A stretch of DNA of 64,000 bases, from contig CAWGLD010000007.1 of NCBI GenBank assembly GCA_963823335.1, positions 320,001-384,000 on the forward strand. Reading direction: 5' to 3'. Positions 3,276 through 38,090 of the stretch are shown one piece after another. Numbering within the stretch: the stretch's first letter is position 1; each line of letters starts with the position of its first letter. The notes under the pieces are model-generated. The model was not told the DNA's origin and searched no databases. It was given only the letters and a program-made list of their open reading frames with translations. Source of the DNA: an uncultured delta proteobacterium. Lineage in GTDB: Bacteria; Desulfobacterota; Desulfobacteria; Desulfobacterales; B30-G6. Position numbers and translations under genes: made by a program.

Positions 3276-3323
3276 TCACAACATATTGTAATATTTGTGT
3301 TGACAAGTATCAACATGTTGTTG
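3276..3323 (+). promoter_or_regulatory. Tandem NrdR boxes flanking a TTGACA -35 upstream of nrdD
   Basis: tcaCAACATATTGtaa (3276-3291) and tatCAACATGTTGttg (3308-3323), 32 bp apart, fit the acaCwAtATaTwGtgt consensus. TTGACA at 3300-3305. Confidence 0.8.
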
Positions 3324-3573: not shown

Positions 3574-5787
3574 GTGTTCGAGCAGATAAAGAAACGGGAC
3601 GGCAGAATTCAGAAATTCGATTCAAAAAATATCATAGAAGCTATCGCCAAAGCTGGAAAAGCCACCGGAGAATTTACAGAAAGAGAAGCCAAAAAACTGA
3701 CGCTTCGCGTCCTTACCCTGGCCCATGAACTCAGACTGGCCTCGATACCGGAAGTGGAAGAAATTCAGGACATCGTCGAAAGAGTACTGCTCGATTCACC
3801 CTTTTACAAAACAGCCAAGGCCTATATCCTTTATCGGGAGCAGCACGCCCAGATCCGCCGAATTGCCACGGAAGCCAATGTCGATCTGGTTGAACACTAT
3901 ATCCAAAAACTGGACTGGAAGATTAAAGAGAACAGCAATATGTGCTATTCTCTGCAGGGACTCAACAATTACATCAGTTCGGACATCACCTCGGAATATT
4001 GGCTCAACAGTATCTATCCCCCGGAAATCAGGCGGGCGCATAAAACTGGTGACATGCATATACACGACCTCAGTCTCCTGTCCGTCTACTGTGTGGGCTG
4101 GGACCTGAAGGATCTTCTCGTCATGGGTTTCAGAGGGGTTGAGGGCAAGGTTGAAAGCGCCCCGCCCAAGCACCTCCGATCAGCCCTGGGTCAAATCGTC
4201 AACTTTTTCTATACGCTGCAGGGTGAAGCAGCCGGCGCCCAGGCGCTATCGAATTTCGACACATTGCTAGCGCCCTTTATCCGCTACGACAACCTCGACT
4301 ACAAGGATGTCAAACAAGCGTTGCAGGAATTCATTTTCAATATCAACATCCCCACACGGGTGGGGTTCCAGACTCCCTTTACCAACATTACCATGGATCT
4401 CTATGTTCCATCCATCCTTAAAGATCACCCGATCATCCTGGGAGGTCAGGAACAAGATGCCACCTATGCCGATTTTCAACCGGAGATGGACATCCTGAAT
4501 ATGGCTTTTGCGGAGGTTATGATGGAAGGCGACGCCAAAGGCCGGGTCTTTACCTTCCCCATACCGACGTATAACATTACAAAAGACTTTGACTGGGAAA
4601 ATCCCAACCTGGACATGATATGGAAAATGACCGGCAAATACGGCATCCCCTATTTCTCCAATTTCGTCAATTCGGACATGTCGCCTGAAGACGCACGATC
4701 CATGTGCTGTCGACTTCGCCTTGACAACCGTGAACTTCTAAAACGGGGCGGTGGTTTGTTCGGTGCCAATCCACTCACCGGATCCATCGGTGTTGTCACC
4801 ATCAACCTGCCGAGGATTGGCGTTTCAGCAGAGAATAGAACCGAATTCTTCCAGACCGTCCAGGAAAACATTCTTCTGGCCATCAAGAGCCTGGCCATCA
4901 AACGAAAGGTCCTGGAACGATTTACCGAAAAGAATCTCTATCCATATTCCAAGTTCTATTTGAGGGACATCAAGGAGGGATCCGGTCTTTACTGGAAAAA
5001 CCACTTCTCAACCATCGGGATCATCGGTATGAACGAAGCGTGCCTGAATTTTCTGGGAGAAGACATCGCCAGCAAAGCAGGCCACACGTTTGCACTGGAA
5101 GTCATGGACTATATTCGTGATATCATTTCTGAAATTCAAGAAGAAACCGGCGATATCTTCAATCTTGAAGCAACACCGGCAGAAGGAACTTCTTATCGAC
5201 TGGCCATGCTGGATAAAAATCTTTACCCGGAAATCATCTGTGCCAACGAGGCAGATTACCAGACCGGCGCAGCTCCCTATTACACCAATTCGACCCAGCT
5301 GCCGGTCAATTACACAGATGATGTTTTTGAAACCCTGCAACTTCAGGACACGCTTCAGACAAAATATACCGGTGGAACAGTCCTGCATATTTTTCTAGGA
5401 GAACAGGTTGAAGATCCAGCAGTAACCAAACAGCTCATCAGGAAAATTTCCAATAAATTTCACCTGCCCTACTTTACCCTCTCTCCTACATTCAGTATCT
5501 GCCCTTCCCACGGCTACCTGAAAGGCGAAAAGTCCCTGTGTGACTGCTGCAGCCAGGACACCGAAATCTACTCGCAGGTGGTGGGGTACTTGAGACCGAT
5601 CAAACAGTGGAACCCCGGTAAGCAGGCTGAGGTCAATCTGCGAAAAACCTACAAGGCGCTCGACCAGGCCAACCATCCGGGCACGGGAGCAGAAATAAGA
5701 CCTTCTGGGGAATGCTATAATCCCGCCCCATCATGTGACAGCGGTATAAACCGGGAAAAGACACCGCAACAGCGCGTGGCAAAATAG
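3574..5787 (+). CDS. nrdD: Class III anaerobic ribonucleoside-triphosphate reductase with N-terminal ATP cone
   Basis: IKKRDG ATP cone, HIHDL, SMCCRL, EATPAEG, CPSH..CDCC Zn site, C-terminal YSQVVGYLRP glycyl-radical loop. Confidence 0.96.
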   Translation: MFEQIKKRDGRIQKFDSKNIIEAIAKAGKATGEFTEREAKKLTLRVLTLAHELRLASIPEVEEIQDIVERVLLDSPFYKTAKAYILYREQHAQIRRIATEANVDLVEHYIQKLDWKIKENSNMCYSLQGLNNYISSDITSEYWLNSIYPPEIRRAHKTGDMHIHDLSLLSVYCVGWDLKDLLVMGFRGVEGKVESAPPKHLRSALGQIVNFFYTLQGEAAGAQALSNFDTLLAPFIRYDNLDYKDVKQALQEFIFNINIPTRVGFQTPFTNITMDLYVPSILKDHPIILGGQEQDATYADFQPEMDILNMAFAEVMMEGDAKGRVFTFPIPTYNITKDFDWENPNLDMIWKMTGKYGIPYFSNFVNSDMSPEDARSMCCRLRLDNRELLKRGGGLFGANPLTGSIGVVTINLPRIGVSAENRTEFFQTVQENILLAIKSLAIKRKVLERFTEKNLYPYSKFYLRDIKEGSGLYWKNHFSTIGIIGMNEACLNFLGEDIASKAGHTFALEVMDYIRDIISEIQEETGDIFNLEATPAEGTSYRLAMLDKNLYPEIICANEADYQTGAAPYYTNSTQLPVNYTDDVFETLQLQDTLQTKYTGGTVLHIFLGEQVEDPAVTKQLIRKISNKFHLPYFTLSPTFSICPSHGYLKGEKSLCDCCSQDTEIYSQVVGYLRPIKQWNPGKQAEVNLRKTYKALDQANHPGTGAEIRPSGECYNPAPSCDSGINREKTPQQRVAK

Positions 5788-5823: not shown

Positions 5824-6522
5824 ATGATATTCGGTGGTCTTCAAAAACAGTCCCTGATCGACTTTCCCGGAAAGATCAGCTGTGTCCTTTTTACATCCGG
5901 ATGCAATTTCACCTGTCCCTACTGCCACAATCCTGACCTGGCCCGTGGACAGATTCATCCGTCCCGTATCTTGACAGAAGAAAGCATATACGATTTTCTT
6001 GAAAAACGTAAAGACTTCCTGGATGGCGTCGTCATCTCGGGTGGAGAGCCGACCCTCCACCGGGATCTTTCGACCATCTGTCACACCATCAAAAAAATGG
6101 GATATCCCGTCAAGCTGGATACCAATGGAAGCCGGCCTGAAATTCTGGAGCAGTTAATCCAGAACCAGGATGTCGACTACATCGCCATGGATATCAAATC
6201 AGACCCCGCCGCCTATCCTCGCGAAATTTCGAGCAATGAGCATACGGCCGCTATTCTTGAGAGCATTGCCCTCATCATGACCGCCGGAATTTCATATGAA
6301 TTTCGTACGACATGCATCAAGCCGTTTTTAGACCGACCCATTGTCGAAAAAATAGCACACGCCATCCAGGGTGCTCAATGTTATGCCCTGCAACAATTCA
6401 AGGATGCGAACGTGCTGTCACCGGAGTATTTTCGCCACAGATCACCCCACTATTCACGCGCAGACCTGGAACAGTTTCAGACCCTGGCAGCCCCTTGGGT
6501 AGAAGCGTGTATTGTTCGTTAG
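5824..6522 (+). CDS. nrdG: Anaerobic RNR activating radical SAM protein
   Basis: GCNFTCPYCHNP, SGGEPTL, KLDTNGS, directly after nrdD. Confidence 0.95.
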   Translation: MIFGGLQKQSLIDFPGKISCVLFTSGCNFTCPYCHNPDLARGQIHPSRILTEESIYDFLEKRKDFLDGVVISGGEPTLHRDLSTICHTIKKMGYPVKLDTNGSRPEILEQLIQNQDVDYIAMDIKSDPAAYPREISSNEHTAAILESIALIMTAGISYEFRTTCIKPFLDRPIVEKIAHAIQGAQCYALQQFKDANVLSPEYFRHRSPHYSRADLEQFQTLAAPWVEACIVR

Positions 6523-37199: not shown

Positions 37200-37256
37200 A
37201 CACCACATATAGTACTACGTTGTTCTTGACACACTATATATATAGCGCTATACATT
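37200..37256 (+). promoter_or_regulatory. NrdR-box pair around a sigma70 promoter
   Basis: acaCCACATATAGtac (37200-37215), TTGACA (37226-37231), then acaCTATATATATAGcg (imperfect second box). Same layout as at nrdD. Confidence 0.65.
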
Positions 37257-37411
37257 TTTATCGCTTGTAAAGAGGTTTGTCTCCCTGTTCTTTCTCAATC
37301 TAAATCCCACACACTCCCCTGGCAAATATACCCCTGGTTCCAACCTGGGTTTTATTTATAAACAACTATTGACCTTATAAACAGAATGCAGAAAAAAGAC
37401 GGAGGATGTTT

Positions 37412-37762
37412 ATGGCTACTATGACGATCAAAAGACTTCACGAACTATTGGATAACAATGCCGACAAAGATGTGCTGGCATGGGCAGGGGCCTGCCACGA
37501 TTGCAGGACCGAGGCCCAGGTTACGGCGATACCAAAAGAAGACGGCATCCATATCAATGGGGGAAGCGTGTACGAACCCGCCGCCAACAAGTTCATGATC
37601 AAGTGTGATGCCTGTTTTGAAAAAGATCCTGTTCTGAGGGATTATCAGGATTGTGAGGTCTACAGCAGGGTGGTAGGATACCTGCGGCCCGTTGCCCAGT
37701 GGAATGATGCCAAGCAGGCGGAGTTCAAGGACAGGAAACTGTATGATCCAAGTATCTGCTAA
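37412..37762 (+). CDS. Stand-alone NrdD C-terminal glycyl-radical domain protein with Zn-ribbon N-terminus
   Basis: CHDC...CDAC, then CEVYSRVVGYLRPVAQWNDAKQAEF. RBS GGAGGA; start 37412 (or 37406). Confidence 0.85.
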   Translation: MATMTIKRLHELLDNNADKDVLAWAGACHDCRTEAQVTAIPKEDGIHINGGSVYEPAANKFMIKCDACFEKDPVLRDYQDCEVYSRVVGYLRPVAQWNDAKQAEFKDRKLYDPSIC

Positions 37763-38090
37763 CCATTAAAATCACAGATCGATTCTAATGGATGTCTTGA
37801 AAAAGCATGATCCGCCAGAGGTGATATCACTGGCGGATCAGTTGTTTTCGGCATCCTGTGGTTTAGCTTCCGGTGGTTTGCTTGCCACCTGGCAAGCATT
37901 GCGAGCTCAGGTGGATATACCGAGTTTTGGGAGGATATATACCTGAAGTAATATCCAGACACCTACAACGATGAACAATATAATGGCTTCTTTCATGGGG
38001 TTCCTTTCCTGGCGCCGTTCAGCACAGGATCGTTATTAATTTATAAACATCAATATGGGATCAAATTAAGCCCCGAGACAACAATTGTCA

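Follow-up and report, generated by a model that had tools for sequence, protein, structure and literature searches.

Oxygen destroys all glycyl-radical enzymes by cleaving them at the glycine that carries the radical. The closest described systems belong to one such enzyme, pyruvate formate-lyase (PFL): GrcA/YfiD of E. coli and Y06I of phage T4 are autonomous glycyl radical cofactors for the oxygen-cleaved enzyme, and in the portions available to us of a 2026 review (PMC13450708) and a JBC 2021 paper (PMC8683613), PFL is the only enzyme for which such spare parts are reported. For NrdD, the class III ribonucleotide reductase (RNR), the available portion of PMC12662201 describes a glycyl-radical domain that flips out of the core for activation, and a full-text search, with subscription journals outside its coverage, found no paper on a stand-alone NrdD radical domain. 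Here we consider a candidate for exactly this: a small gene in a stretch of 64,000 nucleotides, hereafter the window (positions 320,001 to 384,000 of contig CAWGLD010000007.1, assembly GCA_963823335.1), from an uncultured delta proteobacterium of the order Desulfobacterales, whose genome we label G000. From comparison of this gene family with its putative partner, we judge it likely that the product of the gene is a glycyl-radical module that acts in trans on class III RNR.

The small gene occupies an open frame of 118 aa, the start of which is likely the second of two ATG codons, giving 116 aa, because a GGAGG motif abuts the first ATG and because homologues, with N-termini reading MATMT or MxxMT, begin at the equivalent of the third codon. 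The product carries the cysteine motifs C30-H-D-C33 and C67-x-x-C70, a further cysteine, C83, and the loop EVYSRVVGYLRPVAQWNDAKQAEF with Gly91. In a Pfam scan at E<=1 the sole family was NRDD (PF13597; 43.7 bits against a cut-off of 26.2), which matched residues 65-113 through positions 522-562 of its 562. Since only these positions are matched, and since the NCBIfam NrdD equivalog TIGR02487 scores 40.7 bits against a cut-off of 326.35, the protein does not belong among full-length NrdDs; by its sequence it is a piece of NrdD, without the full barrel or the finger-loop cysteine. That this piece is the C-terminal Cys knuckle and glycyl-radical loop of NrdD is borne out by Pfam, by pairwise alignment to the NrdD of the same genome (22/33 residues identical, 67%, over 81-113 and 661-693) and by hhalign, which aligns residues 65-117 to NrdD 654-697 at a probability of 99.4, a stretch that takes in the second CxxC knuckle as well as the Gly loop and in which the small protein has an insert of 9 residues; residues 1-64 have no counterpart in NrdD in this profile-profile alignment. 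The open frame, Pfam and the homologues together confirm what the original prediction had described, namely a stand-alone gene of about 116 aa with CxxC-type cysteine pairs and an intact radical loop. A sequence search of the PDB with the small protein gave chance-level rows only (best E 0.32, HAMP/EnvZ chimeras), and a search of PHROGs only a weak match, to a phage NrdD family.

The family is real. Among 547 candidates of 64-207 aa, 541 are homologues of the small protein, the best 120 of which measure 113-154 aa and are named in their sources "hypothetical protein" or "anaerobic ribonucleoside-triphosphate reductase"; when 1.84 billion representatives were searched with a profile, 3502 matched at E<=1e-3 and 341 at 1e-10, and the best 150 of the 3502 are all 53-159 aa long. 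Across 30 aligned sequences Gly91 and 35 other positions are invariant, including C30, H31, D32, C33, C67, C70, C83 and the whole of E84-V96, and the loop CEVYSRVVGYLRPV.QWND.K..EF is invariant or nearly so. Over 25 loop codons of 23 genes, a pair of genes differs on average by about 10.6 synonymous against 2.6 non-synonymous codon differences, and all four GGN codons are used for Gly91. Synonymous change is saturated over invariant residues, and chance is excluded for the small gene because of the 541 homologues together with this synonymous excess over the loop codons.

The carriers are Desulfobacterales metagenome-assembled genomes (MAGs), Syntrophales/Smithellaceae, a Methanophagales archaeon, a Bacteriovoracaceae MAG and many Patescibacteria (Parcubacteria, Paceibacterota, Nealsonbacteria, Saccharibacteria). 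In a phylum-wide sample the small gene was found at E<=1e-16 in 1 of 401 genomes, namely G000 itself; 13 of the 14 same-order rows among those listed are genomes without the gene, the 380 rows with no match lying outside that list. The sampled genomes of other orders in the phylum are without the small gene, despite the Syntrophales records that carry it. Two genomes that hold the full small gene also hold a zinc-ribbon-only paralogue with no Gly loop (G001:C9:28508-28762, L078, 113 aa; G003:C266:10679-10888, L079, 100 aa).

What carries our reading is the fate of NrdD's own glycine. Of the 151 same-order genomes searched, 25 contain a full-length match to the small gene and 124 contain PF13597; all 25 carriers have nrdD. 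Their NrdD C-termini read VVGYLRP in 19 cases, and in the other six the glycine is replaced: by E in G139 (VIEDRKP), R in G083 (VVRYLRP), P in G145 (VVPYLHP), K in G006 (VVKYQRP) and in G092 (VVKLERP), and P in G033 (VMPYRKP). Each of these six genomes has exactly one VVGYLRP-coding site, which lies in the small gene, and a second NrdD was found in none of them. As a control, we took the 99 same-order genomes with PF13597 and no small gene, leaving out G008, G096 and G103, where NrdD is a fragment with no C-terminus; the glycine is kept in all 96 that have the NrdD C-terminus assembled, 83 of them by exact coding pattern and 13 read directly (RIVGYLRP, RVVGYMRP, RITGYFTR/K, KITGYIRA). The pattern site was compared with the NrdD coordinates for a sample of the 83 rows, and in G058, one of the 83, the pattern match lies elsewhere and NrdD was read directly. 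NrdD's own glycine has been lost, then, only where the small gene is present, in 6/25 genomes against 0/96.

The reverse case also exists, in G124, where the small protein has Gly->Asp (YSRVVDYLRP) and NrdD is intact; either copy can decay, and both have decayed in no genome examined. This divergent small protein of G124 (L027, on G124:C365) adjoins a Tad2-like (Thoeris anti-defence) gene and may lie in a prophage. A separate observation concerns G103, a genome rated 100% complete, which has only an NrdD fragment (profile 418-504) and a stretch resembling the small gene that contains an in-frame TGA (G103:C177:19667-19894 and G103:C96:297-587); here nrdD and the small gene may have decayed together.

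The pattern extends to another 27 carriers of the small gene. All 27 have nrdD, which brings the co-occurrence, proposed earlier as a check, to 52/52 genomes. In this set G544 NrdD has Gly->Pro, and the NrdDs of G547-G549 keep the glycine and have lost other loop invariants, reading YSGVAGYLRPVDQWISQKP or worse; G554 (NrdD C-terminus frameshifted, with one TAG) and G543 (loop masked) were left out of the counts. In a Nealsonbacteria record, NrdD, which contains an intein, ends 13 residues past its zinc CxxC, and the operon runs from this nrdD without a Gly loop, through 9 nt, to the small gene and then, after 3 nt, to nrdG. In a FastTree of NrdD bodies without support values, decayed forms appear in at least three separate places, and the loop losses were multiple, yet fewer than the number of genomes.

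The enzymes that have lost the glycine have otherwise been kept. Against a reference of 368 columns invariant in 18 Gly-bearing NrdDs, the Gly-less proteins retain 321-339 of 327-343 invariant body columns (97-99%) and 9/9 columns of the zinc region, and of the 15-16 loop columns no more than 5-8; for the partial NrdD of G083 the figures are 115/117 body, 9/9 zinc-region and 13/16 loop columns, and leave-one-out Gly-bearing controls retain 16 of 16-18 loop columns. C173 and C378-C379, which we take to align with the active-site cysteines of E. coli NrdD, are invariant in a 34-sequence NrdD alignment that includes five Gly-less proteins. Full-length nrdG, the gene of the radical-SAM activase, lies directly downstream of nrdD in 9/10 cases of a lost or decayed loop (46-53% identity over 231-232 aa), the tenth being cut by a contig end after 121 aa. 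On these sequence grounds the Gly-less NrdDs are not dead genes. An activase retained next to a reductase with no glycine must have something else to act on, and among the candidates the small protein alone has the right loop.

We posit the following mechanism. The N-terminal ~70 residues would fold as a small zinc-ribbon-like beta domain, presumably binding zinc, and the C-terminal ~35 residues would be a flexible copy of the NrdD radical loop. NrdG, encoded beside nrdD, would take a hydrogen from Gly91, and the activated module would dock on NrdD, its strand CEVYS pairing with the NrdD strand ahead of the zinc site. The Gly loop of the module would then enter the barrel in place of NrdD's own, the radical would move to the finger-loop cysteine, and nucleotide reduction would proceed as usual. 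Where oxygen has cut NrdD's own loop, the module would act as a spare part, as GrcA does for PFL; in lineages with a mutated or missing NrdD glycine, it would be the sole radical carrier. The original prediction of an autonomous radical cofactor, repairing or permanently complementing NrdD, finds support as far as comparison reaches: in the 6/25 against 0/96 losses, the constrained NrdD bodies and the kept nrdG, and also in the Nealsonbacteria operon and in oxidative-stress operons outside the order.

These last are found at 10 of 14 loci outside the order, where the small gene stands directly beside oxidative-stress genes: across the 14 loci the neighbours are Fur-family (5), Rrf2 (1), rubrerythrin (5), hemerythrin (1), desulfoferrodoxin (1) and Fe/Mn superoxide dismutase (2) genes, and of the remaining four loci one lies between nrdD and nrdG and three have no such genes. 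An oxidative-stress context is expected of a part that replaces an oxygen-cleaved loop, and fits the repair variant of our reading. Among 24 other Desulfobacterales loci no shared partner gene was found, the neighbours varying.

Structure prediction is consistent with the two-part architecture. AlphaFold2 with a 30-row alignment gives residues 11-70 confidently, as a helix and five strands (block-mean predicted local distance difference test, pLDDT, 79-88), and leaves the loop, folded alone, at pLDDT 37-55; Foldseek of the monomer model against the PDB gave no match at E<=0.001, a result that says little as the C-terminal third of the model is of low confidence. When NrdD(1-660) and the small protein are folded together, the complex scores 0.81 (runs of 0.83, 0.81 and 0.79) against 0.00 for the best of three controls. 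The pass mark was reached by 116/157 solved complexes and by 2/215 mismatched pairs, counts that are a rough guide here, where custom alignments were used (34 rows for NrdD). The runs have at least 93% of contacts in common, with partner pLDDT of at least 79, and the predicted interface is formed by small-protein residues 76-117, of which 83-87 pair with NrdD 639-643. The complex prediction proposed as a check passed its mark, a result that does not show binding, for a reason to which we return below.

The promoter regions point the same way. The features of the window that bear on the argument are collected in Table 1, in which the consensus used for scoring is, we take it, the published NrdR box. 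The layout of box, TTGACA and box is common to the small gene and nrdD, as had been claimed, though the second box of nrdD is poor. Using the same loose threshold, box pairs lie upstream of 19/25 orthologous small genes (16/25 under a stricter one) and upstream of nrdD in 22/27 relatives. In this genome they occur in 101/10,914 windows of 400 nt (0.9%), and chance is excluded for the tandem boxes because of the contrast between these windows and the 19/25 orthologous upstream regions. The small gene has the tandem boxes about 31-32 bp apart at a promoter that, on the assumed consensus, characterise the NrdR regulon, and NrdR itself is encoded in the genome (199.6 bits against a cut-off of 124.65). 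The informative point is the conservation of the motif at the small gene and at nrdD, and not its score alone; the small gene would thus be co-regulated with nrdD through putative NrdR-type operators. Our promoter consensus scan, which needs a T at position 6, did not list the TTGACA/TATACA pair, and the promoter is one that we infer.

Table 1. Features of the window that bear on the small gene and its putative partner; positions are counted from the first nucleotide of the window.
Feature	Position	Strand	Remarks
Small gene	37412..37762 (116 aa) or 37406..37762 (118 aa)	+	predicted zinc-ribbon and NrdD-type glycyl-radical loop, stand-alone
Ribosome-binding site GGAGG	37401..37405	+	6 nt ahead of ATG 37412
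N-terminal domain, residues 8-73 (118-aa form)	37427..37624	+	helix and five strands; Cys30, Cys33, Cys67, Cys70
Glycyl-radical loop, residues 83-113	37652..37744	+	Gly91 codon GGA at 37676-37678
NrdR-type box 1 ACACCACATATAGTAC	37200..37215	+	12/16 to 16-bp palindromic consensus
-35 hexamer TTGACA	37226..37231	+	read from sequence; between the boxes, as at nrdD
NrdR-type box 2 ACACTATATATATAGC	37231..37246	+	13/16; in -35/-10 spacer; 31 bp from box 1
Probable -10 TATACA	37249..37254	+	17 nt past -35; inferred from sequence
nrdD promoter	3276..3323	+	box 3276-3291 (12/16), TTGACA 3300-3305, weak box 3308-3323 (9/16); boxes 32 bp apart
nrdD, full-length class III RNR	3574..5787	+	737 aa; own loop YSQVVGYLRP, Gly671, codon 5584-5586
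nrdG, radical-SAM activase	5824..6522	+	Pfam Radical_SAM and Fer4_12

Several points weigh against the reading of a trans-acting module, and we set them out together. For every member of the family, both activation and docking are predictions. The NrdD of the genome itself keeps its glycine, so that there is no need here for the small protein. Control of the NrdR type speaks for expression together with NrdD rather than for induction by oxygen, and an adjacent oxidative-stress gene was found at none of the 24 other Desulfobacterales loci. The NrdDs with decayed loops are in part each other's relatives, in a tree without support values, so that the independent events number fewer than the six cases. 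A pass for the complex may stem from its similarity to NrdD structures already solved, where this loop occupies this place within one chain, and the N-terminal domain makes almost no predicted contact (residues 4 and 58 only). Other strong box pairs in the genome adjoin unrelated genes, the motif score alone not being specific. Finally, the genome has a non-class-III RNR large subunit, and Gly-less NrdDs could be tolerated as dead enzymes, although the conservation of their sequences argues against such tolerance.

Supposing that a trans-acting module is what the small gene encodes, a bolder version can be put forward, tentatively. Class III RNR in these lineages would be a two-component enzyme: NrdG would charge an exchangeable cartridge away from the reductase, into which the cartridge would then plug. 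NrdD's fused Gly loop would be dispensable and repeatedly lost, and the zinc-ribbon domain would be a handle for NrdG. As the NrdD of this genome has already lost the arginine of the fingerprint, the cartridge may here be the main radical carrier and not an emergency part.

Among the alternatives, the one that survives best, though we think it rather doubtful, is that the small protein is a routine radical subunit in this genome too, and not a spare part, NrdD's own loop being in decay. It draws on the loop of the genome's own NrdD, which reads SQVVGYLRP...AEV against SRVVGYLRP...AE[FY] in the 17 other Gly-bearing NrdDs compared: Arg->Gln and Phe->Val have occurred at positions invariant among those 17, and a relative of this NrdD at 89% identity retains both R and F. 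The altered loop may represent an early relaxation of the enzyme's own copy; moreover, NrdR-type operators stand at both nrdD and the small gene, and the Gly-less lineages show that routine use is viable. On the other hand, this same NrdD has its glycine and most of its loop intact (16/17 invariant loop columns), the canonical loop in 19/25 same-order carriers implies stable coexistence, and the oxidative-stress operons elsewhere fit a conditional role. This NrdD also has a tail of about 45 aa beyond its loop (window 5575-5787).

It is improbable, in our view, that the small protein is a regulator or decoy, which either competes with NrdD for NrdG or plugs the NrdD barrel and so damps or times RNR, or which serves as a sacrificial radical sink for oxygen. 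Such a role would suit an exact mimic of the NrdG substrate, and the zinc-ribbon-only paralogues of two genomes, together with the one small protein in which glycine has become aspartate, hint at radical-free functions. It would leave unexplained, however, why the NrdD body and nrdG are conserved after loss of the glycine, and why a truncated nrdD, the small gene and nrdG form one operon; nor does it sit well with a glycine and a whole fingerprint that stay invariant under saturated synonymous change.

Service to another enzyme, for example to one of the two PFL-like glycyl-radical enzymes of the genome or to some other partner, seems very improbable. These two enzymes exist (834 and 851 aa), and the small gene is not adjacent to nrdD here: the distant, intact nrdD-nrdG pair, originally placed 32 kb away, stands, the exact figure being 31.6 kb. 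Yet the loop is of the NrdD type and not of the PF01228 type, nrdD accompanies the small gene in every one of the 52 genomes, the NrdR-type boxes are common to the two genes, and the pattern of loss is specific to NrdD. It had also been suggested that the small protein might partner a different, split nrdD elsewhere in this genome; the PF13597 matches of the genome are one full NrdD (profile 1-562) and the small gene, with no others, so that there is only one NrdD besides it. Lastly, descent from a duplicated nrdD 3' end, as a remnant without function, would account for a match to the last 41 profile positions of NrdD only, and is hardly conceivable in view of 541 homologues of constant length, a family-specific N-terminal domain not alignable to NrdD, a strong synonymous excess, a conserved operator and ribosome-binding site of its own, and cover by RNA-library contigs.

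This cover comes from contigs of four metatranscriptome runs (three samples), which span 37293-37953; such contigs are silent on strand, ends and level, they cover neighbouring genes too, and DNA can occur in these libraries, so that we regard them as weak evidence of transcription and do not count them as proof. In the window the small gene is flanked by a divergent peptidase S58 gene and a transglutaminase-like gene. Its leader would be about 150 nt long (37255-37405), that of nrdD being likewise long at about 250 nt. A terminator-like hairpin at 37333-37349 with a T-run to 37359 lies in the small-gene leader, at a frequency no different from chance (1 found, shuffle mean 1.2), and when the whole window was scanned with Rfam no family reached its gathering score, hence no known riboswitch in this leader.

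Some further observations concern the rest of the genome and its relatives. Strong box pairs were rejected as markers of RNR genes, as their neighbours are a ParA-like ATPase, SLT, MlaE/PilM and AdoHcyase, and none of the box pairs immediately precedes the class I/II RNR gene, whose large subunit is encoded at C1:1357869-1359269. One such box-TTGACA-box site, outside the window at G000:C7:119421-119466 (L194 1522-1567; boxes of 12 and 13/16, 30 bp apart), precedes an 83-aa open reading frame and a ParA-like ATPase with a CBM48/AMPK1_CBM domain, and may be a further NrdR target or a chance occurrence. The two PFL-type glycyl-radical enzymes lie at G000:C1:1073951-1074259 and G000:C8:80698-81048, in frames of 834 and 851 aa. 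Elsewhere in the order, and in bacteria of the candidate phyla radiation (CPR), many nrdD genes are long and split, being intein-interrupted: frames of about 990-2200 aa with a split PF13597 occur in G146, G009, G032, G020, G089, G104, G013, G045 and G102, and in L113, the last with a Pfam Intein_splicing match.

The family is a concrete candidate repair part for the anaerobic RNR, on which strict anaerobes depend to synthesise DNA, and the reductases that lack their own glycine and keep their activase amount to a natural genetic experiment. If our reading is true, it would explain how the supply of DNA precursors is secured after exposure to oxygen in sulfate reducers, syntrophs, anaerobic methanotrophic (ANME) archaea and CPR bacteria, and it would correct the database name "anaerobic ribonucleoside-triphosphate reductase" that these proteins of about 116 aa carry. 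Within the portions of the literature available to us, supply of the radical loop by a separate chain has so far been shown only for PFL.

How, then, does the locus compare with known systems? As in the NrdR regulon, two palindromic boxes 31 bp apart overlap the promoter, with the same arrangement at nrdD here and in relatives; the putative target differs in being neither an RNR catalytic gene nor an activase gene. With the C-terminal domain of NrdD (PF13597, TIGR02487), the small protein has in common the second CxxC knuckle and the loop EVYSRVVGYLRPV.QWN.GK.AEF, at 57% identity at the profile level, whereas it is without the ATP-cone and the whole catalytic barrel, and has a 9-residue insert between knuckle and loop, the extra invariant Cys83 and 64 unmatched N-terminal residues.

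The nearest parallel is with GrcA/YfiD and Y06I, which are likewise small stand-alone copies of the C-terminal radical loop of a glycyl-radical enzyme. The small protein, at 116/118 aa and with SRVVGY invariant in 30 sequences, is also a stand-alone radical-loop protein with RVxG[FWY], which we take to be the glycyl-radical fingerprint, and it would, as they do, be activated by the activase of its client and replace the client's own loop. There are also differences. The small protein matches PF13597 only, and PF01228 (IPR011140) did not match it at E<=1. It combines a folded N-terminal domain with a loop that is flexible alone, whereas YfiD, in the part of the source available to us, has a disordered N-terminus and a structured radical domain. 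No report of a PFL that has lost its glycine was found in those same portions of the literature, whereas for the small protein there are lineages in which the client has done so; and the client proposed here is not PFL, but class III RNR.

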